Part shown: positions 1 through 21,039 of the stretch, in pieces
Layout: each line of letters opens with the position of its first letter
Position numbering within the stretch: position 1 is the stretch's first letter
IMG/VR virus record: IMGVR_UViG_3300045988_137034
Location: 1 to 21,039 of that record
Strand: one strand, 5' to 3'
Length of the DNA: 21,039 nucleotides
Source of the DNA: a virus
Program-made: the position numbers and the translations under genes
Notes under the pieces: model-generated
Told to the model about the DNA's origin: nothing
The model's database searches: none
What the model saw: only the letters and a program-made list of their open reading frames with translations

Positions 1-1842
1 ATCTCTAATCCTTTTTAATTCAGACTGTAGATCATTCCAAGCTTTATCTGCATCTTCCTTACGCTTAGCTTCTTCATCAGCTCTAGCTTTATCTCTAATC
101 TTTTTAAGCTCTTCCTGATGCCAAGCTTCTACCTCTTCAATTCCCCTATTATACTTAATAGCTAATGCTAATAGTCTAATATATTCATCTTCAAGTTCAT
201 CTACTGGGTCTTTATCCTCTAATCTCTTTTGAAGCCATTCATCAAATTCATTTATTACCTTCTTAGCTTCAGTAGTGTTCTTTGTAATAGTTGGAATATT
301 AAAGAACCCACCATACTTTTTATTAGTATCTGCTACATCCTCAAATAGCTTTTTAATCCTTTTCTCAATGTCTTTATTTAAATCATCCAACTGTTTATAA
401 GTATTCTCTTTATTTTGCTTTGTATACTCATAAATTGTATTTGAATAATCTTTTCAGAACATTGCTGTAGCTTTAAAAGCCTGCCAAGCTGAAGCTTCCC
501 CAAAATTAGTATCTTCAATCTTATTCTCTAATTCGGTGCGTTTATTTAGATATTCTTCATAAAGTTTGATAGCTGCCTGTTCAATAGCTTGTGCTTTAGC
601 TCTTGCTTCTAAGGCTTCTACATAATTGCCTGTATTATTTACAAAGGCATCTTCAGCAGTCTTTACATCAGTAATATTTAATCCAGTCTCTTTAATCTTA
701 TCTGAATATTGCTCAATGAATTTACGTTTATCATCTGCTGAATCTCCAACACTCTCATATGCTATCTGAAGCTCTTTAAATATAGCAATAGACTTAGAAG
801 AAATTTGATTAGTAGCATCAGTGATAGATTTTCTAAATTCTTCTTGCTCTTTAGCAGCTGTTCTTATAGAAGATACATAATCTATTACCTTATTAATAGC
901 TAATCCAATAGCTGTAGCTAAAGCTATCCATACTGTTACATTACCAATAGTTTTAAGAGCTGTAGTTGCTTTTGAAAATGCTGTAGTTGCCTTAGCAGCT
1001 TGTGAAGTCCCATCTGCCAGCCCTTTCGCAGCATCTGCTTGTTTATTCAATGCGGCTGCAATTGCTGGAGAATTCCTTTTTAATCTCTCTAACTCTTCAC
1101 TGGTGACTTTCATACTGTTAGCAGAATTCTTAACAGTATCATTAAATTTGCCAACTATGGGAATGGTATTAGATACACTCTTATTAGTAGCAGATATTCC
1201 AGCAGGAGTGCCCATTACTCCTTGAATCATACCTCCTTTAAAATTAATATTGGTGCCTTCTAAATCCTTGACTACTTTAGAGATATTACCTAATTCAGTT
1301 CCAACATTACCAACAGATGTGCCAATGCTATTAAGCTTAGATGTATCAATCTGATTAAGGTTTTTGGCAGCATTATTCAATCCTGTATTAAATGGGGAAA
1401 TAAAATCAGTTAATTTCTTAAACCAATTACCTAAAGTGGGTAATTCTTCTAATAAATCTTTTATACCTCCCACACCTTGAACTAAAGCAATAGTAGATTG
1501 TAACTTAACCATTACTTTATTTAAATCTTCTGATTCTTTCCCAAATAAAGTAATAGCAGCAGTTGCAGCACCATATCCACTAGCTAAGCCAGTGGATATT
1601 TTAGCTACACTTTCAAATCTCTGTGCAGTAGTTCTTGAAGATCTTGCTATCTGCTCATTAATTTTATTGAACTCTGATTGTCTTTTACCTAGTAATGCAA
1701 GAGTTTCATTATATTCCTTAGTACCAATCTCTAAATCATTCAGAGAACTAGATAATGCGTCAATATCTTTCTTTAAAGAATTTATTGATTTATTACTTGA
1801 TTTAGTATCAATACTAATTACCTTTTTAATTTCTTCAGCCAT
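1..1842 (-). CDS. Tape-measure-like long coiled-coil virion protein; C-terminus runs off the window start; 1 in-frame TGA (454-456) read as Trp
   Basis: Track ORF 454..1842 ends in TGA. The same frame has no tta/cta/tca triplet from 453 down to base 1 (checked triplet by triplet), giving ...FKATAMF-W-KDYSNTIYEYTKQNKE.... Coiled-coil, Ala/Ser/Gly-rich stretches and a hydrophobic segment IGNVTVWIALATAIGLAINKVI are typical of tape-measure or ejection proteins. The ATG at 1842 lies 2 nt after the upstream TAA. Its position after, not before, the big tail genes is atypical for a tape measure, so the name is tentative. Confidence 0.55.
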
Positions 1843-1844
1843 AT

Positions 1845-4800
1845 TTAAATAGTAATATTTTTAATAGTATCTGCATTTAAAGTAAGTTCTTCCTCATATT
1901 TAACAACACTTGATAATTGTACTTCAAAATGGAATGGAACTCCTTTTTGAACATATAAATAGTACTCTCCAGTTGTTGCATCACAATATGTACTATCTAC
2001 AAAGTTGTCATTATCTACATAGATATAAGGTTGTACATCTAATACTTTACCATCTGCATCTGTTACTTTTCCAGAAAGCTTTACTGATTTAGATGGATCA
2101 GGAGTTTGATAAAAATATACTTGTCCTAATCTTTCATAAATATCAGATTGAGCTACTAAACTTAAATAGAAGTTATCTTCAATATATTTAGGATTTTCAT
2201 TATATTCAATAGTCATAGTACTAATTCCAGGTAATCCTTCCATTGGTGAAATATTTGTAATCTTCAAATTATTATACCAACTAACTTTCCAAGGAACATT
2301 AGATTCTATAGTTACAATTTTACTTCCAGCTTCATACCCTACAGTAACTTCTGGGTCACTTACTTCTATGTATTTACCTAAAGTAGATACTCCTCCTATA
2401 TAATTATTGATGTCTTGAACTCTTATAAATTCACATCTAGTAGTTGCATCAGAATTAATATCATAAGCATCTATCTTATTTAATACCCAATAACTATCTT
2501 CAAAATAGTAAAACTGTCTTAACATATCAAAGTTTACTTGTAAATCATTTAATTTTACAAAACAAGTAACTTTCTTAGTATTAACATCAAATTGATCATT
2601 ATAGAACTCTTTCCAGAATTGAGAATAAATAACACTTTGTTCTGGATATGCAATTTTATCTATATAAATTTCTCTTGGTAATCCAAAATCCCAACTAGAT
2701 ATTACATAATTACTTGATATATTATATCTTATGAATTGTGGTAAAGAGGTTCTTTTAATTGCAATCTTAGCACCAGCTTCATTAGTTTCTCTAGTAGTAT
2801 ATAAATAGCAAGGTTCAGAATCATTTAATACAGACATTTCTGTAACATCATCAGTAATCCAATATGTAATAGGATTGCCATCAATATCTTTCATCTCTAC
2901 ATTGCCATTATAAAATAGTAATGTCGATTTAATTTCTTCTAAACTTTGCTCATCATTATCTAATGAATAGAAACAAGTCTTTGCAAATATATCATTACCA
3001 GGAACATCCCACCACTCTGTAGTCTTAGATGAATCAATGAAATTTACTCCATAAAGATCCTGATCGTTTGTTTTTCTTTCAGTAGACGTAGAATGGAATA
3101 ATTGATAAGTAATATTATCATTTAAGAAGCAAGGAACAGGTGAACTTGAACTATTAAAATAGTTTCTATAATACTTATCTACATCTCTTGCAGATATTAC
3201 ATTTTCATATAAGTTATCTGAGTATAAATCTGTATTATCACTATTAAAATTATATCCTGTATCTAATCTCTGTTGCCCATAAGTTATATCATACTGTTTA
3301 TTATATTTCTTTGCATAATACGTCTCAGGAGCTTCTTGTTTCATAGTATATCACTTCTTATCAAATAATAATGGATTAACTGAAAAATCTTTTGAATAAT
3401 CAATTCGTTTAGACCAATCTGTTATCTTATTTTTAAAGAAGTTGTTTCTGGTAAATATTCTAATAGTTTTGGAATCTATATCTTTAATAAAATATAATCC
3501 AAACATTTTAGCATAGCTAAGTAAATAATCCGCAGGTGTAGATTCTGTCTTTAAAAGCTTCTGCTTAGTAATAAGAGCATCAGATGTTACAGCCGATGGC
3601 CAACTTGCAATTAATGTATATTGATCTGAATCATATAAAAATTCAGACCATCCTGCTACTCTTGATGCAGTAACATTATTTGGGTTCATATTATCTGAAA
3701 TCCATAAAGCATCTTGATTATAGAGACTTTCTGTTCTTCTGGCAAATTGAATTGACACCCTTATCTTATTTACTTTTGGCATATCTTTAACCACAAATCT
3801 AAAGGTATTGCTTCCAGTATCACTTTTAAAATAGTACCTCTGCCCACTATCTTTAACAAAATGGCCATAAATAGCCTCAACAGGAGCATCAGTAAGAGGA
3901 TAATAATTAAACCAAGTAGATGGTCCAGCTTGAACTTGAGTATTAATCTTATTTGTAAAGTTATATAATGGAGAATAAGCTATAGGTCTAGATGGAACAG
4001 ATTCATCATCTGCATCATATACAAGTATCTGAACAGTTAAAGATGTTCTATATGGATCATTATGATACTCAATATTTCCCATTTTTCCATTGCGTACATA
4101 GGATAAATAAAGATTATTTGCAGAGGAACTAGCATTAGCATTAAAGAATACCTGAAAGTCCATTGAGATGTTTACTAAAGTATTAGCAGGCGTTGCAGAT
4201 AAATCAATAATATTTCCTTCTCCAGGAACTATCACCTCACTGCCATCAACAGAAGTATACCCTCAATTATATGAGGTTGTTGTTCCTCCAGGTTTTAATC
4301 CTACTCACCAGTTATCTGCTCCATATTTAATAAGCTTTGCATTCTCTTTAATAGAATCTGATTCTTCATCTTCACTACTTCCAAGTAATGGAAGAGCTAC
4401 AAATGATTTACTCCAATAAGGATTTGCATAATTAAAGAAGTAATCATCAAATATTACATCATATCCAGAATTCTCTTTTCTACAAATAGTTTCTATAAGC
4501 TTAGAAAGTTTTAACACTGGTCTTTGCATATAACTGCGTAAGTCTCTTATTTCCCATTCTGTATAAGCTCTATTTAATTGTGCTAAAGCATAACCATTAT
4601 ATGGAGTATATGTTGTTCCTCCATCGCTTGCAGATTTGGGAAATAGAGTGTCTCCTGCTGTATTTATTAAACAAGTTTCATTGTCAAAATTCTCATATAA
4701 ACCATTATATGCAGGAATAAATCCAACAAAGCTATCTAATGTAGTAAAGTCGCTATTCCAATAATTATTAAATGATTTATTTACAAAATCTTTATTAATA

Positions 4801-5294
4801 TAAAAATCCATTTCAGTATCAGCAGGTAAAACATTACCTTCCTCATCTGTAATAAAGTATTGTAAATCAGCAAGAGTTCTTAATGATCCATCTTCTTTAT
4901 ATTTAAGTCCATAGAAGAAATCTCCTAATCCTCCATATAAAGTAATATTATAAGTAATAACAGCTTGTTTTATAGATATACTATTTAATTGCATATATCC
5001 AGATTCAACTAAATAGTCATTATTATAGATTCCAAAATCAACTCGTTTTGAAGGATCAAAATATACTCCAGAGAAATTACCTTCTTTTATATGGAGAAAT
5101 CTATCTAACTTATAAATCTCTCCAAAAATCTTATTATTATTTTTGTCTCCTGGAATGCTTATAGTCTTACTGAATGAATTTTTTACTATTGTTGGATTCT
5201 GAAAATCTTCTACAGTATAAGTCATTGGTAATGATATGCCTTCAGAACAATGTACTTCTTTTCCTGCAATAAATAATTTAATATTCTTTCTCAT
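1845..5294 (-). CDS. Very large tail/baseplate-type structural protein (1149 codons) reconstituted from three standard-code ORFs via TGA=Trp
   Basis: Track ORFs 4305..5294, 3351..4235 and 1845..3344 share one frame. The junctions are single TGAs at 4305-4307, 4263-4265 and 3351-3353, with bridging peptides W-VGLKPGGTTTSYN-W-GYTSVDGSEV... and ...LLFDKK-W-YT-MKQEAP.... The first TAA/TAG in frame is TAA at 1845-1847. Size and position in the virion module suggest a tail fiber or baseplate role; the family is not recognised. Alternative model: if TGA 3351 terminates some of the time, there are two products, 3351..5294 and 1845..3344. Confidence 0.6.
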
Positions 5295-5296
5295 AA

Positions 5297-7477
5297 TTAT
5301 TTACGATAAGTATCTTGAGAAGTTTCTACATTAATTGTATAGTAGAACTTATTCTTACCTTGATTAGTATAAGTTTTATATTCACAATTTGTATCTGTAA
5401 TTAATACTGGAGTAATAGTATTATCTTTAAGATTATGCAAATATACTTTAGTACTCTCAATTAAATTAAACATCTTAGAAGCTTGAATATCATTTAAATA
5501 ACCAGTATAAAGAATCCAGCTTGAAGTTATAGTATTTAAATACTTATTCCTTGCAAATTCTTGAGATGTATTTAATACTTTGCGAGTATATGTTTCAGAT
5601 TTAATTTCATCAGTCTTTCTAACATTACCCTCAACAAGTAATGAATCCCATCCTCCTGCTGAATTAGTATAATATAATACATAATCTTTACCTGTGGTAT
5701 CTATATCATATCTAATCTGTCTATCACTAATATTTCCACCTTCTACAAATCCTACTATTAAATAGCTCCCACAAGGCCATAGTTTATTGCTTAAATCTTC
5801 TGTATATGTATATCCATTAATTCCAGAATTTAAACTAATATCTATAGCAGTTGATGTTCCATCTACATAAAAAAATCTATTAACAACTCCCGTTCCAGTT
5901 GGTAAAATTCAACTTGCTACTAAATATTGTCTTGGATCAACTAAACCAGTAATAGGATCACTTAACATAGTACCTTTAGTCAAATCTCTATCTTTATAAC
6001 TCCAGTCATTGAAGAAAGTAATTGGTTTTTCATTTCCACTAGATGTTATCAAAGTAAATGGTTTCAAATATTCTGGAGATACTATTGTTTTTGAAGTATT
6101 AAATATAATTCCATTAGATAGATAATTCTCAGCAACATTATTTAATAAAAACTCTACTCTATCAGTTTCAGGATATTTATAAGCCTTGCCAGCATAAACC
6201 ATATCTCCTGCATAATCTAGATGATATTCAATAAAATCTGAACTGATTATCTCATTCCAAACATAATCTTTCCAAATAGGAGATATATCAGATTTAACAG
6301 ATTGTGTAATATTAATAGATAAATTAATAATACTTGAACTATTCTTTATAACAGATACTCCAATAGTTGCTTGTCTAGAAGATAAACCTGAATTTTCTGC
6401 AATGTTCAAACTAATAGTTGCTACACCTTGAGGATTCACAGAGAACTTCTGACCACTAATCCAACCTACAGGAATGCTAAATACAACATCATCTAAGTTG
6501 TTTGAGCCTGTACCAGTTATATTTAATGTAGATGCAGTTCAACTTACTTCATAATTAGTATTAGGAATCATTAAAGATGTTGCAGCTTGTTTAATTGGAA
6601 CTGTAGCTTCAAGATTATAACCTCCAGAAGTTGTTGCAGTAACCATTGCACTAAACTCTAAATTATTAGTAGTTTTATTCTCTGGAACAGCTAATACAAA
6701 ATAGTTATCAACAATATCCTTTTTAATATTACTAGCTTGAGGGCAGGTAACATTAAATGAGGTAATTGTTTCTTCTGCTTTAGTTGTACTTAAATGGAAT
6801 TCTTCAGTAACAAAAGCAGATGCTCCATAAGTTCCAGATGAAGGAGTTACTACTAGCTTTAAATCTTCTGGAGTATTACTTTTTTCAATAGTAAAGCCAT
6901 AACTATAAGAAATAAACTTATTAGTTTCATAATAAGCTCCTAATTGGATAGTTCCAGTTAAATCTGTATTCCATTGAGTATTAGCTCTTACTGTGAATTT
7001 AAACTTAATAGAGCAAGAATCCCAATCCAGAACTTCCATATTAACTAAAGCTGTAGCATTAACAACTGCTGCATCTCATTTAATAATATCTGATCTATTT
7101 AATATATACTCTACTGTATATTCTCCACCAGTATTTGGTACTTTAATGGTGCCATTAGCAGGATAATATCCAGGAGCTTTACTATGTAAATTAATTGGTA
7201 AATCTTCCCCTAATAAAGCAGTAGTAATACCTCTAGGATAAAAATGAAATACAGTAGAAGAATCAGTAGTTATTGTTGTAGGAGATAAAAATTGTATTGT
7301 ACATCCTTCTTTACTTGGATCCTGTATAGTTACATTTAAAGGCCCTTCTTCAGTATAATCATCTCCCCAAGTCCAATAATCATATTCTCCAGTAATTCCC
7401 CATCCAGGATTATTCCATTTAACAGGAAAACTCCTTGATGCATTATATATTCCTAATTTACTTGGTATAAATGCCAT
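5297..7477 (-). CDS. Large tail/surface protein (726 codons) with Ig-like/BACON-like beta-sandwich repeats; 3 in-frame TGA
   Basis: Track ORFs 7076..7477, 6539..7039 and 5909..6439, plus an untracked segment 5297..5908, share one frame. They are joined by TGAs at 7076-7078, 6539-6541 and 5909-5911 (...SDIIK-W-DAAVVNATALVNMEVLDW..., ...NYEVS-W-TASTLNITGTG..., ...YLVAS-W-ILPTGTGVVNRFFYVDG...). The gene ends ...YRK-TAA at 5297-5299. Strings such as SIKFKFTVRANTQWNTD and ATISLNIAENSGLSSRQATIGV resemble BACON/Ig-like repeat signatures (recollection only, not searched). Confidence 0.65.
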
Positions 7478-7479
7478 TT

Positions 7480-7968
7480 TTAAAAGTTTTTAAATAAATA
7501 ATAATCTACTTGTCCTTGTAAGTCTTTAGTTATAGCATCATCAAGAAGTTCCATATAGTTGTTCTCTATATATTCTATAGTATTAGCAAGTGGATGTTTT
7601 CCTTGAGTTCCTTGAAGATGTATCTTTCTTCCAATTAAATATGCAAGTTGATCTACAGTAGGTAACTTGCCATTATAAGGTCTTGGAATTACTGGCTTAG
7701 TTTTAATCCAACTCTTTATATCAGATAATGGAGGAAATTTACCAGCAGCTCTGCCTTCTTCAACATATTCTCAATAATCTAATAAGCTAAAATTAACCTC
7801 ATAGTCTCCATCCTGAGTCTCAACTATATAGTTTAAACTATTACCTAATGCTCCAGTGTCATCAGATCTGGTTTTAACTAATTCCTGTCTATAAAGAGAA
7901 ATTATAAGATCTCCTCACTTCCTTAATAGCTCACTTAAATTTGAGAACTTTAATTCTTGAATATTCAT
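7480..7968 (-). CDS. HK97 gp10-like / neck-tail joining family candidate (162 aa); absent from the standard-code ORF track because of 2 in-frame TGA
   Basis: From ATG 7968..7966 to TAA 7482..7480, every triplet was checked. TGAs at 7915-7917 and 7771-7773. Translation: MNIQELKFSNLSELLRK-W-GDLIISLYRQELVKTRSDDTGALGNSLNYIVETQDGDYEVNFSLLDY-W-EYVEEGRAAGKFPPLSDIKSWIKTKPV.... The Y-x-EYVEEG-R pattern resembles the gp10-family YAxYVExG motif. It is the first gene after the terminator at 8009-8035. Confidence 0.5.
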
Positions 7969-8008
7969 TTTTGTTAAAATATATTATTTTATATATTAGT
8001 AGCTAATG

Positions 8009-8035
8009 AAAATAGGGAGGTTTACTCCCTATTTT
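8009..8035. terminator. Bidirectional intrinsic terminator hairpin (11-bp stem, 5-nt loop, A-tract/T-tract flanks)
   Basis: AAAATAGGGAG-gttta-CTCCCTATTTT: perfect inverted arms at 8009-8019 and 8025-8035. It lies about 200 nt downstream of the 8233..8874 gene and just upstream of the structural operon start at 7968. Confidence 0.7.
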
Positions 8036-8232
8036 ATATGTAACTTTTTTATATTATCTTAGTACCAAATATGAGTAAAAAGGTTACAGTTAATGTTTTC
8101 TTTTTCATTCTTCAATCTGTCTATTTTCTTCATTAGCTTTATCTATAACATAGCATATAAGATTCAGGAACTCTTTAATCTGCATATCATATATCTGATG
8201 TCAATTAAATCTGGTAACTTCACTAACTCTGT

Positions 8233-8874
8233 CTATTCAGATAATTCAGCTTCATTTTTGAGTAAAAGGATTAATCGTCTCGTCTGTATTAAGCTCTTCA
8301 GAAGTTTCCTCCTTTCCAGTTTGTCCTTGGTTTTCCTTAGTCTCTTCTTCATCTCCCTTTCCGAAGAGTGTAGGGTACTCAGCGTTGATACTTGCAATAA
8401 GTTTACAAAAAAAAACATTATGTCTGAAAATATATCTATTGTTAGATGAGTATTTAAGAATTCTGCCTCATCAATAGGGTCATAATCTTCTCCATACTTC
8501 TTTCCATTAGGTAGTAAGAAACAAGCTGCTAGATTAGGCATAAAATCATCATACTGCTTATAAAAATTCTGAAAGTCAATATATTGACTGGCCGTCATCT
8601 TATTAACATTAAAAAAGACTTTATATTCTTTATTTCCAATATTATAAGTAGTTTCTGGAGTTTTTGGCTTATAGGGGGTCTCTATAAATTTAAGATTATT
8701 TATAAACTCTTGTAGCTTGTTTACTTCCATATTAGTTATATCTTCTATAGGTATATCACTAAGTACAGATACCATAGCTAAATTCATATCTAATTCATTT
8801 TCCCAGTCTTTTCGTATTATCTCAAACAGTCTTTTATAATGAGATAAATCCATTTCATTCCAATTCTTTATCAT
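8233..8874 (-). CDS. Hypothetical protein (213 aa) translationally coupled to the large terminase
   Basis: Intact standard ORF ending in TAG. Its ATG (8874..8872) overlaps the terL TAA (8876..8874) as TAATG. Basic helical C-terminus (KKRLRKTKDKLERRKLLKSL). No family recognised. Confidence 0.6.
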   Translation of the reverse strand: MIKNWNEMDLSHYKRLFEIIRKDWENELDMNLAMVSVLSDIPIEDITNMEVNKLQEFINNLKFIETPYKPKTPETTYNIGNKEYKVFFNVNKMTASQYIDFQNFYKQYDDFMPNLAACFLLPNGKKYGEDYDPIDEAEFLNTHLTIDIFSDIMFFFVNLLQVSTLSTLHSSEREMKKRLRKTKDKLERRKLLKSLIQTRRLILLLKNEAELSE

Positions 8875-12437: not shown

Positions 12438-12699
12438 TAATTTTATCTGTTATAAAAATATCATAATATCGTTTATATGCATAATAGTATCTGCTATTCT
12501 TACTGAACCAGTTGTTTTTAAATACTCTTACAATTCAGTATTTTAATTCATTTTTGGCCAATAAACTATTTAATTTGGCATTATCTGTCTCTAGTAAAGC
12601 CAGTAGACAAATTTGAAAACAATCATCATCCATCCCAAATTTAACCTTTAGTTCTAAGCAGAATTCATAATATTTGGTAATAATTTCATTATTCGTCAT
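12385..12699 (-). CDS. Hypothetical protein (104 aa); 1 in-frame TGA
   Basis: From ATG 12699..12697 to TAG 12387..12385, every triplet was checked. TGA at 12535-12537 (…NELKY-W-IVRVFKNNWF…). It fills an otherwise uncoded 250-nt gap. Its 3' end overlaps the HNH start by about 50 nt. Confidence 0.45.
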
Positions 12700-13123
12700 T
12701 TGCTATATAATTACTAAATTCTGTATTTATATCTATCTTAATAGCTTTCTTTAAAGATAACTCTGTTTTTAATGAATATCCATAAGTTCCTCCAAAATCT
12801 GTTGTAGAACACCCATATTTCATAGAGTCTTTTATAAAGGCTGATTTTATATCTTTAAATATATATATACCATCATCGAATATTATTACTAATATAGAAT
12901 TATTTCTGGATAGTAGATCAAATTTTTCTCTATTAATAATAGTTGTTGGATATTTATTAGAATTAAATCTCCTTCTTTTAACTTCTATTATATAATCAAT
13001 TCCATTCCAATTAAATGTTCCATCATATCTGGAATAATTATCTTTATATCATTCTATTTCTATATTATATTTATCTTTAAATAGATTCTTTATAAAGACT
13101 AAGCTTCTTATATCTGTTTTCAT
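12689..13123 (-). CDS. PD-(D/E)xK nuclease-like protein (144 aa); 1 in-frame TGA
   Basis: From ATG 13123..13121 (TAATG overlap with the upstream gene) to TAA 12691..12689, every triplet was checked. TGA at 13049-13051. SRYDG...IDYIIEVKRR fits a D...(D/E)-x-K restriction-endonuclease-fold motif. This is a motif-level call only. Confidence 0.4.
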
Positions 13124-13362
13124 TATTTTATATTATTAATTTTAAGGGTTAAATCACAATATTCTTCATATAAATTAGATACTTCTTCACTTGCAGGATT
13201 AAACCACATTACTGAATCTAATTTATGCTTTAACTCTGCTCTTTCTAATCTTAATTCAAATGTTTTAGTTTGGTACTCTCCATAAGCATTATATACTCTA
13301 ATACCAGCTATTCCCATTAAAATAATCGTTGCAATAATTGCATATTTAAATATAGTTTTCAT
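13123..13362 (-). CDS. Small N-terminally membrane-anchored protein (79 aa)
   Basis: Intact ORF; TM helix YAIIATIILMGIAGI followed by a helical region. It is the first gene after the 13363-13460 intergenic region. Confidence 0.5.
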   Translation of the reverse strand: MKTIFKYAIIATIILMGIAGIRVYNAYGEYQTKTFELRLERAELKHKLDSVMWFNPASEEVSNLYEEYCDLTLKINNIK

Positions 13363-13396: not shown

Positions 13397-13413
13397 TTAT
13401 TGTAATACAATAA
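13397..13413. promoter_or_regulatory. Perfect 17-bp palindrome, operator-like site in the intergenic region
   Basis: TTATTGTA-A-TACAATAA: 8-bp arms around a single central base. A 1-nt loop is not a plausible RNA hairpin, so a dimeric-protein binding site is more likely. It lies 35 nt upstream of ATG 13362. Confidence 0.35.
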
Positions 13414-13460
13414 ATAATGAAAAGTTTTTAATTCTCAAAATATTTAAGCAATTATTTTTA

Positions 13461-14207
13461 TTAAAATTCAAAAATATCTTTATTGTCGTATTCAATATCT
13501 TGTTTTCTGTCTAATCCAAATAAACCAGCAAGTATGTCATTATAGATATTATTAGCTTTTGGACTTAAATAAAGCTTATTCTTTACAAAATAAACGGTTT
13601 GCTTATATAATTTATTATCAGAGGGAGTAGAAAGCACATTCTTAATAGTTCTAATATTCTGCTCATTTAAATGCACTACTTCATTCTTAATAAACTCTTC
13701 ATATCTTATCTGATAACCATCTTCTACTTTATCTAAGTAAAATCCATACTCTTTTAGCTTATTAAGCTTATTATTTAATAGATTATATGTAATATCTAAT
13801 TCTTTAGCTATATCCTTCTTATTTAACTTAATTTTTAAAGTATCATCAAATGCCAAACTTCTAATTCTTAAGGCAAATCCCAATAAATTTAGATCCTTAT
13901 CAATATTATTAATTACAAAATCTAATTTAACCATAAAAAATGTATTTAGTATTGATTTATAGGTATTAGTCTTTATAACATTACCATTATCTTTAATTAT
14001 AACCTTAGTAGAGCAGTCTAATAACTCTGCTTTATAAAGATGACTATTCATCTTTTTAATATAATCTACAGAGCATTTTAAATACTTTGCAAAGTAATCT
14101 CTTGTATATACTTTATTTTGAAGCTGTGTATAAGATTGTAAAGCCATATAATATGCTTCTTTGTCATTCAAATCCTTTACTCGTTTATCAATTTTTAAAT
14201 AAATCAT
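13461..14207 (-). CDS. Winged-HTH DNA-binding protein, replication-initiator-like candidate (248 aa); no TGA and no Trp at all
   Basis: Intact ORF ending in TAA. HTH-like KKDIAKELDITYNLLNNKLNKLKEYGF. It sits directly beside the iteron-like repeat cluster at 14254-14326. The function is inferred from context only. Confidence 0.4.
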   Translation of the reverse strand: MIYLKIDKRVKDLNDKEAYYMALQSYTQLQNKVYTRDYFAKYLKCSVDYIKKMNSHLYKAELLDCSTKVIIKDNGNVIKTNTYKSILNTFFMVKLDFVINNIDKDLNLLGFALRIRSLAFDDTLKIKLNKKDIAKELDITYNLLNNKLNKLKEYGFYLDKVEDGYQIRYEEFIKNEVVHLNEQNIRTIKNVLSTPSDNKLYKQTVYFVKNKLYLSPKANNIYNDILAGLFGLDRKQDIEYDNKDIFEF

Positions 14208-14253
14208 AGTGCTAAATTTTTTACTGGAACGAAAGCTCGAAGAGCTGAGTCCT

Positions 14254-14287
14254 ATAGTATTACTTTTATTATAGTATTACTTTTATT
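14254..14287. repeat. Perfect tandem direct repeat, 2 x 17 nt (ATAGTATTACTTTTATT)
   Basis: Copies at 14254-14270 and 14271-14287 are identical, in the divergent intergenic region. Confidence 0.9.
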
Positions 14288-14290
14288 AAT

Positions 14291-14326
14291 GGGTACTGAA
14301 TCGACAGGTCGGTCGGGTACTGAATC
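14291..14326. repeat. Two identical 12-nt direct repeats (GGGTACTGAATC) separated by a 12-nt GC-rich spacer
   Basis: Copies at 14291-14302 and 14315-14326. The spacer gacaggtcggtc, together with its flanking bases, can form a small CGAC/GTCG hairpin. This is locally the most GC-rich stretch of an otherwise AT-rich region. Confidence 0.9.
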
Positions 14327-14344
14327 AATATATGTCTAAAAATA

Positions 14345-14369
14345 GGGTTTGGGTAGCTAATCCAAACCC
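14345..14369. terminator. Hairpin GGGTTTGG-(9 nt)-CCAAACCC with A-tract/T-tract flanks; terminator-like element in a divergent intergenic region
   Basis: Arms at 14345-14352 and 14362-14369, preceded by AAAAATA and followed by CTTTT. No gene on either strand obviously runs into it, so its role is unclear (terminator of a short RNA, or part of an origin). Confidence 0.4.
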
Positions 14370-14543
14370 CTTTTAGCACTAATAAAAGTAGTAATTATTT
14401 CTAATTACAAGGCAAAGATAACATTATTTTTTTTAAAATCAAAATTTTTACAATAAAAAAATAACTTTTTATTAAAAATATTTTATTAAAAATAATATTA
14501 CAATTCTTGAATATATTATATATTAATAAAAAAGAATAAAATT

Positions 14544-15329
14544 ATGAATTGGAAATCAACAAACATTAAAGGATATTCAGTTAGTGATGAAGGTCAAATA
14601 AAGAACGAACTAACAGGAAAAGTATTATCTCAGTTTAAGAATAATATGGGGTATTATTTAGTAAGCATACAAGATAAAAAGTATCTTGTACATAGATTAG
14701 TAGCAGAGGCGTTTTTAAATAAACCTAATAAATGTAATATAGTAGAACATAAAGATGATGATCCCACAAATAATTGTGTAGATAATCTTATGTGAAGTAC
14801 TCAGAAATTGAATTTAAATAGGCAAGGAAGGCTTGAAAAGTTAAAAAGGCATTATCAGTCCAATGAATGAAAAGAAGCTAGAAAAAAGGCTTTAGAAACA
14901 ATGAAAGCAAATGGATTTAAAAAGACTAAATCAGATAAGCAAAAGGCTAAAGAAGCGGCCAGATTAGATAGAATATCTAAAGAAAGAGAGAATATAAGAC
15001 CTACTCTCGACCAACAATATGATGCGTTTATTAATCCTTTAATTGATTTACTTAAATCTGGATATAGTTTAAAGAGAGCTGCACAATATTTTGGAATAAA
15101 TGATACTACTGGCATTACTTATTTTTCTAAAAGATATTATGAAGAAACAGGAATTAAACTTATTACATATAAGATTAAAAAATCGTCGTTTTCAAATGCA
15201 GAAAAATTAATGAATAAAATTAAAGAATTATATAATCAAGGTTTAACTGTAGAGGAAATAAGTGAAGAAGTAAATAGATCAATTAATATTGTTAATAAGT
15301 ATATAAAACTATGGAAGATTCATATTTAA
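14544..15329 (+). CDS. HNH homing endonuclease with extended C-terminal HTH region (261 aa); 2 in-frame TGA
   Basis: Track ORFs 14544..14795 and 14901..15329 are in frame (offset 357 nt). The junction reads ...NNCVDNLM-W-STQKLNLNRQGRLEKLKRHYQSNE-W-KEARKKALETMKANG..., with TGAs at 14793-14795 and 14868-14870. LVHRLVAEAF and VEHKDDDPTNNCVDNLMW form the HNH_3-type core. HTH-like SLKRAAQYFGIN and LTVEEISEEVNRSINIV. Ends in TAA at 15327-15329. Confidence 0.8.
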
Positions 15330-15493
15330 ATAGAATTGCGGATATTAAAGAAACAATTAAACAAACTGAAGAGTATATTAAAGAATTGGATAAATGAATA
15401 CTCAAATGTAAAGAAACTACTAAAAGATTTGGTGATATTATAGATAAAGTATTAAAAGATAAAGATTATATGTCTATTTCTAAATTTGATTAA
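15311..15493 (+). CDS. Small hypothetical protein (60 aa); 1 in-frame TGA
   Basis: ATG 15311 to TAA 15491-15493; TGA at 15395-15397 (…KELDK-W-ILKCKE…). Helical and charged. Overlaps the HNH 3' end by 19 nt. Confidence 0.35.
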
Positions 15494-15495
15494 TT

Positions 15496-15636
15496 ATGAA
15501 TGATTATTTATTTAAAAAACTTGAAGAACTAGAATATAGAATAGTTCAATTAGAAAACCAGAATAAAGGTTTAGTCTGGGAAGAAGTAGAAGAAATGCCA
15601 AAACCAGAAATTTCTAATGCAACTTATATTGACTAA
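15496..15636 (+). CDS. Small hypothetical protein (46 aa)
   Basis: ATG 15496 lies 2 nt after the previous stop; TAA at 15634-15636. MNDYLFKKLEELEYRIVQLENQNKGLVWEEVEEMPKPE..., coiled-coil-like. Confidence 0.3.
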   Translation: MNDYLFKKLEELEYRIVQLENQNKGLVWEEVEEMPKPEISNATYID

Positions 15637-15637
15637 T

Positions 15638-15781
15638 ATGAAGTATCAAACATATAAATTATGCTTAAATGGAATAAATTACGTTTATGTAATTCCTGAA
15701 AATAGTAAATTCTTAGTAGACTTACAAACAGGAGATCTAATACCTAAAGAAGATGATAAGTTATTTGAAATAATGGAATAA
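15638..15781 (+). CDS. Small hypothetical protein (47 aa)
   Basis: ATG 15638 lies 1 nt after the previous stop; TAA at 15779-15781, followed immediately by the terminator hairpin. Confidence 0.3.
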   Translation: MKYQTYKLCLNGINYVYVIPENSKFLVDLQTGDLIPKEDDKLFEIME

Positions 15782-15785
15782 ATGA

Positions 15786-15813
15786 AAATAGGAGGGTATA
15801 TGCCCTCCTATTT
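15786..15813. terminator. Bidirectional intrinsic terminator between convergent transcription units
   Basis: AAATAGGAGGG-tatatg-CCCTCCTATTT: perfect 11-bp arms at 15786-15796 and 15803-15813. It lies 4 nt after the plus-strand TAA (15781) and 4 nt after the minus-strand TAA (15818). Confidence 0.75.
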
Positions 15814-15817
15814 CTGT

Positions 15818-16408
15818 TTAAGCGTATTTTCATTTAAATCCTTTTACTTTATAGCCTTCTCTAATTGCTTTAGAAATAGAATTTTTATGAACTCCAACAT
15901 CTAAAGAAGCACTAACAGCACAGTCATATTCTTTAATAAGAATATCGTCTTTATACGCACCTACTTTTTTAGCTCTAGGATTATTGCCAAAAGAATTATT
16001 TAAATAACTCAAATCTTTACCTTTATGACTATTACTCATCTTTTTTCGAGTTTCTTCTGATGGATGTCTTCCAATACATTTGGCTCTAATCTTATCTTTT
16101 CTTTCCTGAGTGAATGCAATACCTAAGGTGCCGTCACCTCCATCTGTAGCATTATATCCATATTTGGGATCTCTAGTATTATATTTATGAATAAGAATTT
16201 TTTCTAAAGTCTTGGCACAAGGTTCTGGCAAATTATCTTTAATTATAATATGTTCAAAATTATCCCATCCATATTTTGTTATAGCGTTTCAAAACGGCTG
16301 TTTTCTATAACCAAGACCATTTGCTCATCGTATTTCTGGCTTCTTACAAGTAATGCCAATATATTTCTTACCATTAATCTTGTTTAAATGAATATATATA
16401 CTATACAT
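15818..16408 (-). CDS. GIY-YIG homing endonuclease (196 aa); 3 in-frame TGA
   Basis: MYSIYIHLNKINGKKYIGITCKKPEIR-W-ANGLGYRKQPF-W-NAITKYGWDNFEHIIIKDNLPEPCAK...KVKGFK-W-KYA-TAA. TGAs at 16325-16327, 16289-16291 and 15830-15832. GIY (IYIH) and YIG motifs, the R-W and KYGWDNF motifs, and NUMOD-like HxSEETRKKMS are present. The track ORF 15830..16231 is only the middle piece. The ATG at 16408 overlaps the endolysin stop. Confidence 0.85.
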
Positions 16409-16850
16409 ACAAATTACCTTTTTTTCTTCGTTGTAGTCCTTTAATACTATATAAAGCAATATGCACTCACTGAGATGTACGACTTTTTTCTATAAAGCAT
16501 TCGTCAAAATTATAATTCTCTATTTCATCTGTTATTCATACTTGGAATATCTTCATTTGACCGTTACTTGGAATTATATCTGCTGCATATCCTGTTAGAT
16601 GGGCAGATGTCAAAGATCCTCCTACAGCTTTATTAAGCTCATTACATCTATAACCTGAATTCACACTTATTGCTGGATTCCCCAACCGATTAACATCACA
16701 ATACTCTGCCCAATCACTTCTTAATGGATCTAAAAGTTTCTCGACTAACTCTATAAGGTGTTCAGTAATCTCTTTATTTGGAGTATTATCTATCTTCTTA
16801 ATAGAAGCTGTATCAGATCTTGTTAATTCACTAATAGTAAAATATTTCAT
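16401..16850 (-). CDS. Endolysin, zinc peptidase M15 family (149 aa); 2 in-frame TGA
   Basis: SGYRCNELNKAVGGSLTSAHLTGYAADI carries the H-x6-D zinc motif. The track ORF stops at ...MKIFQV-TGA (16536-16538). The frame continues -W-ITDEIENYNFDECFIEKSRTSQ-W-VHIALYSIKG...-TAG (16401-16403), with the second TGA at 16467-16469. W-V-H supplies the expected C-terminal His ligand region of this family. Confidence 0.8.
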
Positions 16851-17011
16851 TATTTAATAATATCTTTAAGCATAACATAACGGTAAAATAAATGACATCC
16901 TGCACCAAGTGCTATGAGTACTAATGTAATCCAAAATGGAATTACTTTTACCATTAAACATACTAAGATTATAATTACTATTGCTATTAAATATTTCATC
17001 CAATATTTCAT
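16850..17011 (-). CDS. Holin candidate (53 aa, two TM helices)
   Basis: MKYWMKYLIAIVIIILVCLMVKVIPFWITLVLIALGAGCHLFYRYVMLKDIIK. Its TAA overlaps the endolysin ATG as TAATG. No TGA. It is below the ORF-track size cutoff. Confidence 0.6.
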   Translation of the reverse strand: MKYWMKYLIAIVIIILVCLMVKVIPFWITLVLIALGAGCHLFYRYVMLKDIIK

Positions 17012-17014
17012 AAC

Positions 17015-17668
17015 TTATTTATTTAAAATTATACTTACTTTAATTCCTGCATCTCTTAGTTTTACTCAAGTATCAACTGGCATCTCATTATCACAATAAG
17101 ATAATCCTAAAACTCCAATATCCCTATCTTCTGACTTTAAATAGAATATTGCAATCTTATTAACATCATTAGATTTAAATGTATAATACATTCTCCTATC
17201 TAATTCCTTTATATCTTCAACATCTCCCAATCATCCTCCTTTTTTAGATGTTTCCAATATAAATAAATAATCAGATAATAGGAAATCTTTATAGTGTTTA
17301 GAAACTGAAGCAACTCCAGGTTCTGTTTCTTCACTATTCATAATCCCATAAGTAAATGGAAGTCCTCCTAATCCTGAAGTGCCATTATGATACTCAATAA
17401 CTCAAGCTCTATCTGCATTCGTATCATTTAAAAGATCTTTAAGGATATATCTAACCTTAAGATCTGCTTCTTGTCTTATTAATTGATTAGTATTATGGAC
17501 CGTTTTTATATAGTTTGTAACTTTATCATATATTATTCCTGGATTAGTACTTATAATTATTACATAAGAAATAAATATAAATCCAAATCCACCTTTAATT
17601 ATTTTTCACAGTCCATATTTATCTACTCATTCTAATACCTTTCCAAACCAGTTTAATTTATTTTCCAT
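17015..17668 (-). CDS. N-terminally membrane-anchored protein (217 aa) heading the lysis cassette; 5 in-frame TGA, invisible in the standard-code track
   Basis: From ATG 17668..17666 (TAATG overlap with the upstream GIY-YIG stop) to TAA 17017..17015, every triplet was checked. TGAs at 17627-17629, 17606-17608, 17402-17404, 17231-17233 and 17066-17068. MENKLNWFGKVLE-W-VDKYGL-W-KIIKGGFGFIFISYVIIISTNPG.... Function unknown. Confidence 0.5.
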
Positions 17669-18252
17669 TACATATCATACTTAAAGGTATATCCTTTAGT
17701 TTGTTTTTGTCTGCCACTTAAAACTGAAGATATTAAAGAAGAAGTTATGTTTAACTCTCTTGCTGCTGATCTTATACTTTTATAAGATTTTATAAATCTT
17801 CCATCTAAAGTGTATTGACTAATAGCTTTAGTTCCATAGTTTTGATTTTTCTTGCGTATTAATTCCTTAGTTTCTTCTGAATGATGCTTCCCATAAAATG
17901 GATTTTTATTTCCTATTCTAGTTTTAGCAAATTCAGAAATAATAACTTTAGTTTCATTAGAAACTATCGGATGATTACTTGTGTCAGTTCTATTATAACC
18001 AAATCTTAAATCTGTAGTATTATAATAGCTAAAGAAGTATTTTTCAAGATATTTCATTTCCGATTCACTATTTACATAATAAATAGTGTGTTTAATATTG
18101 TTTCAACCGTACTTTTTAATTGGTCTGTAAACAAATTGATCTTTATATCCTTCTCCACCTCTTCATCTACTATTTACTGACTGAGTGGTTAATCCAACAT
18201 ATCTTTTACCATTTGGAAAAGTATGAATATAAACTACATACTGTCTTGACAT
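17668..18252 (-). CDS. GIY-YIG homing endonuclease (194 aa); 2 in-frame TGA
   Basis: MSRQYVVYIHTFPNGKRYVGLTTQSVNSR-W-RGGEGYKDQFVYRPIKKYG-W-NNIKHTIYYVNSESEMKYLEKYFF.... TGAs at 18163-18165 and 18103-18105. NUMOD-like GKHHSEETKELIRKK and a C-terminal HTH. The ATG at 18252 overlaps the upstream gene by 19 nt. Confidence 0.85.
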
Positions 18253-18659
18253 AAGCCTAATGTGTTGTCAACTTGGAAATCAACTCTAACAAATACTCCG
18301 CAGGTAATATCTTTGAACTTTTGATAGAATGGAGTATAAATTAAAGGATAAGCTATTTCAACTTCTGGATATAGGTTATTAAATCGATTAATTATATTAG
18401 TTAATGCTAATATTCCAGCTGATTGCTCTTCTAGCTGATTATTATCAGTCTCATCCCATCTTGCTATAAAATAGAGATTTAATGAGTAAGTAATAGTATC
18501 TTCATCCATATTAAATGTATTTGGCGTTATATAAAATACATTATATTCAATAGTTGGAATACTATTAAGTTCATATATATCTTTACTTCCTACAAAATTA
18601 ATATTAGGTTCTTCAAGAGCACAGGCTTTTAAATTGTTTATTAATTCAAAATACGTCAT
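18234..18659 (-). CDS. Hypothetical virion-module protein (141 aa), possibly head-closure or tail-completion
   Basis: Intact ORF ending in TAG. The position between connector-like gene and lysis cassette is the only functional hint. Confidence 0.5.
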   Translation of the reverse strand: MTYFELINNLKACALEEPNINFVGSKDIYELNSIPTIEYNVFYITPNTFNMDEDTITYSLNLYFIARWDETDNNQLEEQSAGILALTNIINRFNNLYPEVEIAYPLIYTPFYQKFKDITCGVFVRVDFQVDNTLGLCQDSM

Positions 18660-18660
18660 A

Positions 18661-19152
18661 TTAAATGTATTTAAAAGTTAATTTATTCTTATATTTTCTA
18701 CCTGTTTTTAAACAGTAACGTATACTTTTAGAGTCTATATTTAACCTACGAGCACATTCATTAATAGATGGATATTCTATATCATTACATAATATTTTAT
18801 GAGATTGCTTATAAATTGAATACCTAGTATTATATGAAATAGTACACCATTCTAGATTACATACTCGATCGTCATTCTTTACTTCATTTTTATGATTAAC
18901 AACTGGATAGTTAAATGGATTCTCTATAAAAGCATATGCTACTAATCTACATACTCTATAATAGTAGGGTTTACTATCTTTCATTAAAGTAACCCACTTA
19001 TATCCATCTTTATCAATGTTAGGTTTTAAAATACGCTCATTTACTGGGCAAATACACCCATTCTTACTAAGTCTAGCTCTTGCAACTGATTTAACTTCTC
19101 CAGAATCACTCACTTGGTAATAACCTTCAAAGTCTTTAATATCTTTCCACAT
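18661..19152 (-). CDS. HNH homing endonuclease (163 aa), the only endonuclease here with no TGA
   Basis: MWKDIKDFEGYYQVSDSGEVKS (NUMOD4-like), VCRLVAYAF, VVNHKNEVKNDDRVCNLEWCTISYN (all three Trp encoded by TGG), and a C-terminal HTH INECARRLNIDSKSIRYCL. Confidence 0.85.
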   Translation of the reverse strand: MWKDIKDFEGYYQVSDSGEVKSVARARLSKNGCICPVNERILKPNIDKDGYKWVTLMKDSKPYYYRVCRLVAYAFIENPFNYPVVNHKNEVKNDDRVCNLEWCTISYNTRYSIYKQSHKILCNDIEYPSINECARRLNIDSKSIRYCLKTGRKYKNKLTFKYI

Positions 19153-19154
19153 AA

Positions 19155-19817
19155 TTACTTTTTCTTATTCTTATTTGAACTTGGAAAATCATATCTAGAT
19201 CTTAGAGAATTATTATATAGTCCCTTCGAGCGTATACCTCCAAGCCAGATACCACAACTACTTGAACTGTATAAATTAGGATACATATCTTTAAGAGGTT
19301 TATATGAATATAATTCAGGAAAATCATTATAATATGTAATAACCCAATCTTGTAGTCTTGCTTTAAAGAAATCTGCTTTATCTCTATAATATTTCTTAAT
19401 AAGATTAACTTGACTTGCATCTGCAGCTATATCTTTCTCATCATCAGTCCTCATAACTCCAAAATTACTAAGTTTAAAAGAGATAGGAATAGTAATTTCA
19501 CTTAATACTTGATAAAGTAAATAAGGCTGAATATAGTAATCTAATAATTCTTTATATCTATGATTTTCTGGATCATCTATAGATGTTGGATCATAAATAG
19601 GAGGTTCTATTGGATGAACTGGTTTATTTGGATCTTTCCAATCAATTACTAATTTCTGAATCTTCTCTAAGAGCTTAGTTCCAATTAATGACTGAAGCTC
19701 AATATCTTGTGCAAGTTTGATTGCAGACTGAAGATATTTACCAGAAACATTATTATCTAAATTAGATTCTGATTTTATATAATCTTCAGATATTAATAGT
19801 ACATTTCTATATTCCAT
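19155..19817 (-). CDS. Head-tail connector/adaptor-like protein (220 aa)
   Basis: The N-terminal pattern LISEDYIKSESNLDNNVSGKYLQSAIKLAQDIELQSLIG resembles gp6-like connector N-termini, and the gene lies downstream of the portal. Motif-level call only. Confidence 0.4.
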   Translation of the reverse strand: MEYRNVLLISEDYIKSESNLDNNVSGKYLQSAIKLAQDIELQSLIGTKLLEKIQKLVIDWKDPNKPVHPIEPPIYDPTSIDDPENHRYKELLDYYIQPYLLYQVLSEITIPISFKLSNFGVMRTDDEKDIAADASQVNLIKKYYRDKADFFKARLQDWVITYYNDFPELYSYKPLKDMYPNLYSSSSCGIWLGGIRSKGLYNNSLRSRYDFPSSNKNKKK

Positions 19818-20460
19818 AATAATATTTATAATTTTTGCAGGGTTTATTTTTTCTACAAGATCTAGATATACTAGAAGAATCTACATTATTCTTCTCTCCA
19901 GCTTCCTTAGCTGATTTATACTCACAAATAAAATTACCATCTAAATCATACTTATATACTTTTTTGCACTGACGTTCTGAAATTAGTTGTTTTTCTTTAT
20001 CTGAGAGTTTCATACCTTTATTTCAAGGAGTTTTGCCTAATCTTGCCTCCCTCATTTTACGCTTGCTTTCATCTGAATGCTGTTTACCATAAAATGAGTT
20101 ATTTTCTCCTGATCTTATAATTCTAAGACTATCTTTATAATCTTGTGAAAAAGAATATCCACAAGTACCGTCTCCTCCATCAGTTAAATTATACCCATAT
20201 TTTGGATTTCTAGTATTATACTTATAAATCAGAATCTTTTCTAAAGTCTTAGCACAAGCTTCTGGAAGATTATCTCTAATTATAATATGCTCAAAATTAT
20301 CTCAACCATATTTTTTAATTGCTCTGCTAAAATAAAGATTATTCTTGTAACCTTGACCTTTAGTTCCCCATCTATTATTTAAAGTAAGTGATGTTATTCC
20401 AAAATATAATTTATTATCAGCTATATTCTTATGGCAGTACACTGTATAATTATTCAACAT
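19807..20460 (-). CDS. GIY-YIG homing endonuclease (217 aa); 2 in-frame TGA
   Basis: MLNNYTVYCHKNIADNKLYFGITSLTLNNRWGTKGQGYKNNLYFSRAIKKYG-W-DNFEHIIIRDNLPEACAKTLEKILIYKYNTRNPKYGYNLTDGGDGT...GKTP-W-NKGMKLSDKEK.... TGAs at 20302-20304 and 20023-20025. The track shows only the last 68 aa. The ATG at 20460 overlaps the portal stop by 11 nt. Confidence 0.85.
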
Positions 20461-21039
20461 TTTCTGCATTTTCTGACATTCCTTTTGGAGTTAAACTAAA
20501 TGGTTCAATAGTAATACTATTCTTAATGCCGAAGATTTTATCAAATGAGTCACAAATTTCTGATTGTATTGGGCGTACAAAAGTACGATTATATAGCTTA
20601 AATGCTTCATTAAACTCATTTTCATTAAATCCTGAGCTATAGTTTAAACCGAACAACGAAGGATTAGCTCGGAAGGCACAGAATATTTGATCTCTTGTTC
20701 TTTCAGATAATGATTGATATTTTTCATCAAAATCATCAGAATCTAACCTTTCAATTGTGGTCTTATTTGCCTCATCTGCATTATATGAAATCAATATTCT
20801 GCCAGCATTCTGATAACCAGAGAACTTCTCATTAATATTCCTCTCAATCTCCTCTCTAATTTCATCTGTAGGCTCTCCATTATTAAAGTTAATAATAAGA
20901 TTGCCCATAAATCCATTATTGATATTGTTTAAATGGAACTCATTAATATTTTTCTCAGTTTCACAAGATAGAATAGCAGCTCCGTAAACAGGAATAGGAT
21001 ATACTCCTCTTGTTATATAACCTTTATTATAAAATATAC
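20450..21039 (-). CDS. Portal protein, C-terminal part (N-terminus beyond the window end)
   Basis: The frame is open from 21039. ...GVYPIPVYGAAILSCETEKNINEFHLNNINNGFMGNLIINFNNGEPTDEIREEIERNINEKFSGYQNAGRILISY... and ...FNENEFNEAFKLYNRTFVRPIQ... match the usual portal core/clip-region pattern as I remember it. Ends in TAA at 20450-20452. Confidence 0.65.
   Translation of the reverse strand, partial: IFYNKGYITRGVYPIPVYGAAILSCETEKNINEFHLNNINNGFMGNLIINFNNGEPTDEIREEIERNINEKFSGYQNAGRILISYNADEANKTTIERLDSDDFDEKYQSLSERTRDQIFCAFRANPSLFGLNYSSGFNENEFNEAFKLYNRTFVRPIQSEICDSFDKIFGIKNSITIEPFSLTPKGMSENAENVE

Follow-up and report, generated by a model that had tools for sequence, protein, structure and literature searches.

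In-frame TGA codons predicted to encode tryptophan in a compact, tRNA-free lineage of human gut phages

The window analysed here is the whole of a 21,039-nucleotide (nt) stretch of DNA, IMG/VR virus record IMGVR_UViG_3300045988_137034. It comes from an uncultivated tailed phage of the human gut and covers about two-thirds of the phage's genome (~31-33 kb). Its G+C content (GC) is 28%, and nearly all of its genes lie on the minus strand. Tiling the window with open reading frames (ORFs) under translation table 4 (code 4), with TAA and TAG as the sole stops, gave 27 genes, and the addition of an ORF of 53 amino acids (aa) at 16850-17011 brought the set to 28. A first-pass annotation had counted 38 in-frame TGA codons in 17 genes, with no in-frame TAA or TAG and with all genes ending at TAA or TAG. 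Our recount in the code-4 gene set agrees exactly: 17 of the 28 genes hold 38 TGAs, neither TAA nor TAG occurs in frame, and the complete genes end with TAA (19) or TAG (7) and never with TGA. Read in their other two frames, these genes contain 898 TAA, 418 TGA and 375 TAG triplets, and because off-frame TAA and TAG are so plentiful, their absence in frame is not an effect of composition. Very probably, TGA is a sense codon for tryptophan in this phage, and only TAA and TAG would terminate translation. The 17 genes with in-frame TGA codons are listed below.

1-1842, minus strand: tape-measure-like protein, N-terminal 614 aa, running off the left edge; TGA at 454-456, six TGG
1845-5294, minus strand: structural protein of 1149 aa (tail or baseplate); TGA at 4305, 4263 and 3351, 17 TGG
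5297-7477, minus strand: structural protein of 726 aa; TGA at 7076, 6539 and 5909, 13 TGG
7480-7968, minus strand: protein of 162 aa with a weak tail-completion/neck match (phrog_5, E = 2.5e-5); TGA at 7915 and 7771
8874-10157, minus strand: large terminase (TerL), Terminase_6N at residues 49-243 and Terminase_6C at 260-393; TGA at 9561-9563 (residue 199)
10891-11229, minus strand: membrane protein of 112 aa, conserved family-wide; TGA at 11134, 11095 and 11053
11214-11699, minus strand: HNH homing endonuclease (NUMOD4-HNH_3-NUMOD1); TGA at 11571, 11436 (N-L-E-W) and 11226
11922-12437, minus strand: HNH homing endonuclease; TGA at 12168 (N-L-E-W), 12042 and 11946
12385-12699, minus strand: protein of 104 aa; TGA at 12535
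12689-13123, minus strand: protein of 144 aa; TGA at 13049
14544-15329, plus strand: endonuclease with HNH and helix-turn-helix (HTH) parts; TGA at 14793 (N-L-M-W) and 14868
15311-15493, plus strand: ORF of 60 aa; TGA at 15395
15818-16408, minus strand: GIY-YIG homing endonuclease; TGA at 16325 (R-W), 16289 and 15830, TGG at 16265 (K-Y-G-W)
16401-16850, minus strand: Peptidase_M15_3, putative endolysin (Pfam match over residues 3-131, E = 2.8e-14); TGA at 16536 and 16467
17015-17668, minus strand: protein of 217 aa with no assigned function; TGA at 17627, 17606, 17402, 17231 and 17066
17668-18252, minus strand: GIY-YIG-type endonuclease (NUMOD3/NUMOD1); TGA at 18163 (R-W) and 18103 (K-Y-G-W)
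19807-20469, minus strand: GIY-YIG homing endonuclease; TGA at 20302 (K-Y-G-W) and 20023, TGG at 20368 (R-W)

The positions that the first-pass annotation had given for individual codons are all correct, both in TerL (9561-9563) and in the M15 peptidase (16536-16538 and 16467-16469). The same is true of its pairing of TGA and TGG at motif tryptophans: the N-L-E/M-W motif of the HNH genes is written with TGA at 11436, 12168 and 14793 and with TGG, at 18847, in the fourth copy, and in the GIY-YIG genes K-Y-G-W has TGA at 18103 and 20302 and TGG at 16265, R-W having TGA at 16325 and 18163 and TGG at 20368. When the codes were compared, reading TGA as sense left 27 stop-to-stop ORFs (mean 245 aa) in place of 38 (mean 161 aa), while reading TAG as sense made no difference (38 ORFs, mean 163 aa). 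Such a crude comparison of ORF lengths is uninformative for high-GC relatives, because the loss of their main stop codon fuses genes, and in-frame counts within homologous segments were used for them instead. A readthrough-type sequence context was looked for around the TGAs and none was found. At the edges of the window, the corrected gene bounds make the minus-strand ORF 1-1842 the leftmost gene and the C-terminal part of the portal gene (20450-21037) the rightmost; a plus-strand ORF at 1103-1852 overlaps the former and was rejected as an antisense artefact.

The proteins of the window were aligned to 46 independently assembled related loci, and the codon opposite each tryptophan site was read. 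Opposite the window's TGA sites the relatives have TGA 459 times and TGG 214 times, followed by TAT, TTT, CTA, GAT and TAC, with aromatic codons leading the remainder; no GGN (glycine) codon is among the 12 most frequent. At the window's TGG sites, the relatives have TGA 137 times. TGA and TGG are swapped at many tryptophan sites of the 1149-aa structural gene; the TGA at 16536 in the M15 peptidase gene is TGG in 31 relatives; four of the five TGA sites in the 217-aa gene are TGG in 13-22 relatives; and the single TGA of the 104-aa gene is TGG in 17 of 21. In the opposite direction, the TGG at 11834 in the HTH gene (11684-11938) is TGA in 19 of 21 relatives, and that at 19638 in the DUF6712 gene is TGA in 15. 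Other sites are constant: the TGA at 454 in the tape-measure-like gene is kept in all four aligned relatives, and that of the 60-aa ORF in all 31.

Homologues that use the standard code place tryptophan at the same columns. I-HmuI of Bacillus phage SPO1 (PDB 1U3E) aligns with the HNH protein of 11214-11699 over residues 2-157, across its TGAs, with N-L-R-W opposite the window's N-L-E-TGA; it has W at TGA residue 88 and F at TGA residue 43. Opposite the Q-TGA-V-H of the window's M15 peptidase (16467), the standard-code peptidase of L055, a contig from a Bacteroides bin, reads S-W-I-H with its W encoded by TGG. In TerL, where the segment YYQSFDWALEDTSMLLSEDK spans the TGA-tryptophan site, close homologues have W at the TGA column and distant homologues F. 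Profile alignments also run through the sites: Pfam Terminase_6N spans residue 199 of TerL, Peptidase_M15_3 continues through TGA residues 105 and 128, and the HNH_3 and GIY-YIG matches span their TGA-coded motif tryptophans. Thus, the predicted tryptophan assignment is supported by three independent lines, namely codon swaps in relatives, standard-code homologues and Pfam spans.

The interchange of TGA and TGG as synonyms therefore excludes, for practical purposes, translation table 25 (TGA = glycine), pseudogenes, assembly errors and separately initiated fragments. A glycine reading, as in phages of Absconditabacteria and Gracilibacteria, would suit the facts that low-GC phages of this type occur in human microbiomes (PMC10746230) and that one distant TerL relative (L099, 28% identity) lies in a Gracilibacteria genome; those phages resemble the window in their in-frame sense TGAs, human association and low GC. 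We consider it exceedingly improbable, however, with GGN codons missing from the most frequent dozen at the TGA sites, TGG and aromatic codons in the lead, and TGAs at the invariant tryptophan of N-L-E-W, K-Y-G-W, R-W and W-x-H. Hardly more credible is the view that the TGAs are true stops, reflecting pseudogenes, assembly errors, separate fragments, programmed readthrough or selenocysteine. Table 11 does yield ORFs on both sides of each TGA, but the frames are broken by TGA alone (38, against zero TAA or TAG) despite the many off-frame TAA and TAG; dozens of independent assemblies keep TGA or TGG at these positions; domains carry on through them; the fragments have no start contexts of their own; and there are up to five TGAs per gene, in unremarkable sequence context.

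Under table 11, 17 of the 28 window genes are split or shortened (the M15 peptidase, for example, to 104 aa), and any annotation, clustering or host prediction based on the standard code would go wrong in this prevalent gut lineage. Gene callers that allow for other codes already cope with its TGAs. From its database start at 10121, TerL is 415 aa long, and a public protein collection already holds it (P0008) at this full length, across the TGA; the public gene caller thus treated the codon as sense. Stop-codon recoding in phages was established by Borges et al., Yutin et al. and Cook et al., and the first-pass annotation was right that TGA-to-tryptophan recoding is known from uncultivated phages (10.1101/2021.08.26.457843; PMC11210395). 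The recoding itself is thus not new; what the present lineage adds is a compact tRNA-free genome, an evolutionary series and gene-specific avoidance of TGA.

A TerL search returned hundreds of near-identical proteins on 29-34 kb contigs (ENA, Logan and IMG/VR), and the lineage is a prevalent human-faecal phage; the 30-odd IMG/VR relatives come mostly from dataset 3300045988, described in one paper as a human faecal co-assembly. TerL- and portal-centred loci (L008, L002) overlap at both ends, which closes the relatives' genome at ~31 kb. It contains portal, DUF6712 and lysis genes, a small divergent module, small and large terminase genes, large tail proteins, the tape-measure-like protein, an S78 protease, the capsid gene and fibre genes. 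The gene order of the wider family is membrane protein, small ORF, TerS-like protein, TerL, three conserved proteins, large tail protein, capsid and portal, and its standard-code members have syntenic homologues of the 1149-aa structural gene. Searches of the phage collection gave no match for the whole window (megablast) or for the capsid protein (tblastn), and TerL is less than 30% identical to that of any deposited phage. No integrase was seen in the window clade.

Within this syntenic family, the relatives L041-L056, L075 and L126 have 0-1 in-frame TGA per 900-2,200 homologous codons, and two of the low-GC members, L048 (31% GC) and L126 (32% GC), are still standard-code. Recoding is confined to the window clade and L040; as in the window, no gene of L002, L008 or L040 stops at TGA, and TGA makes up 38% of tryptophan codons in the window and 62% in L040. 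As a stop, TGA accounts for 22-69% (mostly 30-50%) in most relatives at 38-61% GC, and for 0-1 of 16-17 stops in low-GC standard-code relatives (31-32% GC), the relatives used for this trend including L048, L126, L051, L052, L043 and L050. These comparisons of homologous segments show the predicted recoding to be derived and limited to one low-GC sub-clade; the other members of the syntenic family are standard-code and, we infer, associated with Bacteroidota hosts. Borges et al. (10.1101/2021.08.26.457843) proposed a path from low GC through loss of TGA stops to recoding. The family fits this path, because all three stages (TGA a common stop, TGA near-unused at low GC, and TGA read as tryptophan) are visible in a single lineage.

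The use of TGA differs greatly among genes. Other two-fold codon families in the window are 0.66-0.91 A-ending, and the low TGA share of tryptophan codons (0.38) is therefore not a general bias against A. Structural and packaging genes use TGA for 0.18 of their tryptophan codons, homing endonucleases for 0.62 and the remaining genes for 0.65, a difference between classes with a chi-square p of 1.7e-5. The major capsid gene, which lies outside the window (L008 1438-2343), has no TGA against 100 TGG in 25 orthologues; a 572-aa protein encoded on the opposite strand in relatives, which has no family match, has none against 123 TGG in 27 orthologues; and a 174-aa head or tail protein has one against 77 TGG across the clade. 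Avoidance of TGA in the capsid and 572-aa genes looks selective, because equally diverged neighbouring genes exchange TGA and TGG freely. The capsid gene also has a low AAA share of lysine codons (0.33, against about 0.6-0.7 elsewhere), which suggests strong translational selection on this gene.

On balance, the host is probably a peptidoglycan-walled, standard-code member of the Bacteroidota, in which the phage would change the reading of UGA during infection. Two relatives are prophages carried on Bacteroides sp. contigs 189 and 587 kb long, and a search of 50,697 phage records with the portal protein gave matches to Nonlabens phages, Bacteroides phage BS-TP3 and a single unannotated faecal record only. 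Shine-Dalgarno-like cores precede 4% of window genes (background level) and, at or close to background, 0-12% of those of other low-GC family members, and the sequence upstream of the window's start codons is A/T-rich. Starts of this kind, A/T-rich upstream and without a Shine-Dalgarno sequence, are typical of Bacteroidota. A 53-aa ORF with two transmembrane segments, whose stop codon (TAA) overlaps the ATG of the M15 peptidase gene, is probably a holin that would form a peptidoglycan lysis cassette with this peptidase. As to codon usage, Borges et al. found in-frame TGA in ~90% of genes of phages that share the code of a code-25 host and recoded codons in 26-71% of genes of phages of standard-code hosts; the window, at 61% (17 of 28), falls in the latter range.

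The main rival of a standard-code host is a natively code-4 one (Mycoplasmatales or an undescribed gut lineage), the tRNA-Trp(UCA) of which would read the TGAs. Such a host would account for a whole ~31-kb genome without tRNA, release factor or tryptophanyl-tRNA synthetase (TrpRS) genes, for TGA never being a stop and being present in genes of most modules, and for a GC of 28%, as in Mollicutes; moreover, 22 of the 27 INPHARED (GenBank) genomes predicted to use table 4 are those of Mycoplasma or Spiroplasma phages (PMC11210395). Three Mycoplasma phages (MAV1, phiMFV1 and P1) indeed resemble the window in reading TGA as tryptophan, in having no suppressor tRNA, in stopping only at TAA and TAG, and in their GC (25-29%). 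In these phages, however, TGA makes up 0.77-0.95 of tryptophan codons (0.38 in the window) and is found in 82-93% of genes, and Shine-Dalgarno-like cores precede 36-73% of genes; none of the three records has an annotated peptidoglycan hydrolase, and searches of the phage collection found no similarity between Mollicutes phages and the window. A holin and peptidoglycan-peptidase cassette would have no target in wall-less Mollicutes, and no walled gut taxon is among the bacterial lineages known to use code 4 (PMC13092985). Also at odds with a native code-4 host are the capsid and 572-aa genes, entirely free of TGA across 25-27 orthologues, the standard-code relatives in the family, some of them in Bacteroides contigs, and the portal matches, which apart from the unannotated faecal record are to Bacteroidota phages only. 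With five independent features (family, portal, starts, lysis cassette and codon usage) counting against it, we regard a natively code-4 host as doubtful.

Several points weigh against the reading that we prefer, that of TGA as tryptophan in a phage of standard-code Bacteroidota. The evidence for the codon assignment itself is at the level of sequence, not of protein. The assignment of the host is indirect, with no CRISPR-spacer match and no prophage of the window clade, and the nearest genome-binned relatives (49% TerL identity) are on short contigs in bins of Bacteroidia, Acutalibacteraceae and Clostridia. The Bacteroidota promoter motif TTTG/TAnnTTTG is not enriched in the window (1 match, 1.3 expected); the sole TTTG-N19-TAnnTTTG match, on the minus strand at 14413-14443, is no more than chance, and sigma-70-like promoters were not enriched in the promoter scan either. 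A standard-code host also leaves the decoding of UGA unexplained, and background readthrough would be insufficient, because some genes hold 3-5 TGAs. Finally, TGA is present in genes of every module, including the regulator-like HTH gene, which carries it in 19 of 21 relatives, and therefore there is no clean partition between early and late codes; even the small genes adjoining the TGA-free 572-aa gene contain TGA (the 60-aa ORF in all relatives).

If standard-code Bacteroidota are nevertheless the hosts, their reading of UGA would switch during infection. Genes whose products are needed first or in large amounts (those for the major capsid and 572-aa proteins) would be kept free of TGA, and homing endonucleases, lysis genes and small genes would use it for most of their tryptophan codons. 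The decoder would not be a recognisable phage tRNA; it might be supplied by the host or be the product of an unrecognised phage function. ARAGORN and Rfam found no tRNA gene in the window or in the 46 related loci, which cover the closed genome, and domain searches of the proteins of the window and relatives found no release-factor or TrpRS domain. Pfam and PHROGs searches of the unannotated proteins gave no hint of functions that change the code, and Rfam at E <= 10 gave only chance matches, nothing tRNA-like. Relaxed ARAGORN (-ps80) is uninformative, with ~10 matches per 20 kb, inside genes. Its 98-nt 'tRNA-Trp(CCA)' at 19603-19700 (plus strand), or 'tRNA-SeC(TCA)' in relatives, has degenerate, mismatch-filled arms and was rejected as a false positive; it is antisense to the DUF6712 gene, and its anticodon reads CCA or TCA according to whether the polymorphic codon that it covers, at 19638, is TGG or TGA. 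Structured intergenic regions (fold z -3.4 to -4.4) were likewise rejected as RNA genes, being mostly terminator-like hairpins and, in one case, the 53-aa ORF.

Three routes could be imagined. The phage might exploit a variant host tRNA-Trp(CCA) whose anticodon stem has only 4 bp; in E. coli this variant increases readthrough of UGA, and in Bacteroides oleiciplenus it is found together with the normal form (PMC13092985). Alternatively, an unannotated phage protein might edit C34 to U in the host tRNA-Trp, or might disable release factor 2 (RF2). That a small tRNA-less phage makes standard-code Bacteroidota read UGA as tryptophan by a route as yet undescribed for phages seems to us unlikely; if it were true, the TGA-free capsid and replication genes would mark what needs the host's own code. 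The missing decoder is a known gap, because surveys likewise find no detectable suppressor tRNA in 65% (10.1101/2021.08.26.457843) to 85% (PMC11210395) of code-4 phages. The closed, tRNA-free 31-kb genome is a compact case of this open problem and, being small, lends itself to working out how UGA is decoded.

Among recoded phages already described, the Garnet and Amethyst clades of Borges et al. (10.1101/2021.08.26.457843), which we compared by description only, are similar in genome size (~34 kb), in their human or animal gut origin and in having close relatives that differ in code (11, 15 or 4). Garnet includes a Prevotella prophage, a Bacteroidetes host as inferred for the window lineage, and has in-frame recoded stops in 71% of its genes (61% in the window). 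The low GC and loss of TGA stops proposed as the precursor state for these clades are seen within the window family, and just 35% of the code-4 genomes in that study have a detectable TGA suppressor tRNA. Unlike Garnet and Amethyst, the window clade shows no integrase, and whereas Borges et al. stress recoded structural and lysis genes, the capsid gene of the window clade avoids TGA fully. Recoded crAss-like phages (PMC7886860; 10.1101/2022.06.29.495998) are also low-GC Bacteroidota gut phages without Shine-Dalgarno sites and with a stop codon (TGA or TAG) reassigned in part of the gene set. In contrast to the window lineage, they have ~100-kb podovirus-type genomes, usually with suppressor tRNAs, and use the codes in blocks; no sequence relationship to the window was found in the phage-collection searches. 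The code-25 phages of Absconditabacteria and Gracilibacteria differ in the meaning of the codon, glycine there and tryptophan here.

The 11 window genes without in-frame TGA are as follows.

8233-8874, minus strand: protein of 213 aa, conserved beside TerL; two TGG
10105-10557, minus strand: protein of 150 aa in the small-terminase position; clade-wide one TGA against 18 TGG
10466-10801, minus strand: conserved protein of 111 aa; no tryptophan codons
11684-11938, minus strand: HTH protein of 84 aa, sigma-70 region-4-like in relatives
13123-13362, minus strand: membrane protein of 79 aa
13461-14207, minus strand: protein of 248 aa with weak HTH matches; no tryptophan codons
16850-17011, minus strand: ORF of 53 aa, the holin candidate
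18234-18659, minus strand: conserved protein of 141 aa; clade-wide no TGA against 39 TGG
18661-19152, minus strand: HNH (NUMOD4) endonuclease; all three tryptophan codons TGG, including N-L-E-W at 18847
19155-19817, minus strand: DUF6712 protein
20450-21037, minus strand: portal protein, C-terminal 195 aa, running off the right edge; no tryptophan codons, PF04860 in relatives

The seven free-standing homing-endonuclease genes (four HNH and three GIY-YIG/NUMOD) make up ~21% of the window's codons. In close relatives they sit elsewhere or are missing; L004, for example, has no homing endonuclease after the portal gene and has an HNH gene between two large tail genes instead. The HNH copy at 18661-19152, with TGG only, may be a recent arrival.

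The divergent module at 13461-15493 is swapped with respect to L002 3884-5899, where relatives have the TGA-free 572-aa protein on the opposite strand; in its place the window has the 248-aa HTH-like protein and the HNH-HTH endonuclease. Its divergent intergenic region (14208-14543) contains a tandem 17-nt repeat at 14253-14286 and a 12-nt repeat, 24 nt apart, at 14291-14326, and could be an operator or origin. G+C-rich hairpins followed by T runs are found on the minus strand at 15785-15814 and at ~8000-8040 (AAATAGGAGGG...CCCTCCTATTTT and AATAGGGAGT...CCTCCCTATTTT). One lies in the spacer 15494-15817, after the convergent end of the plus-strand ORFs, and the other between the genes at 8233-8874 and 7480-7968; both are probably intrinsic terminators.

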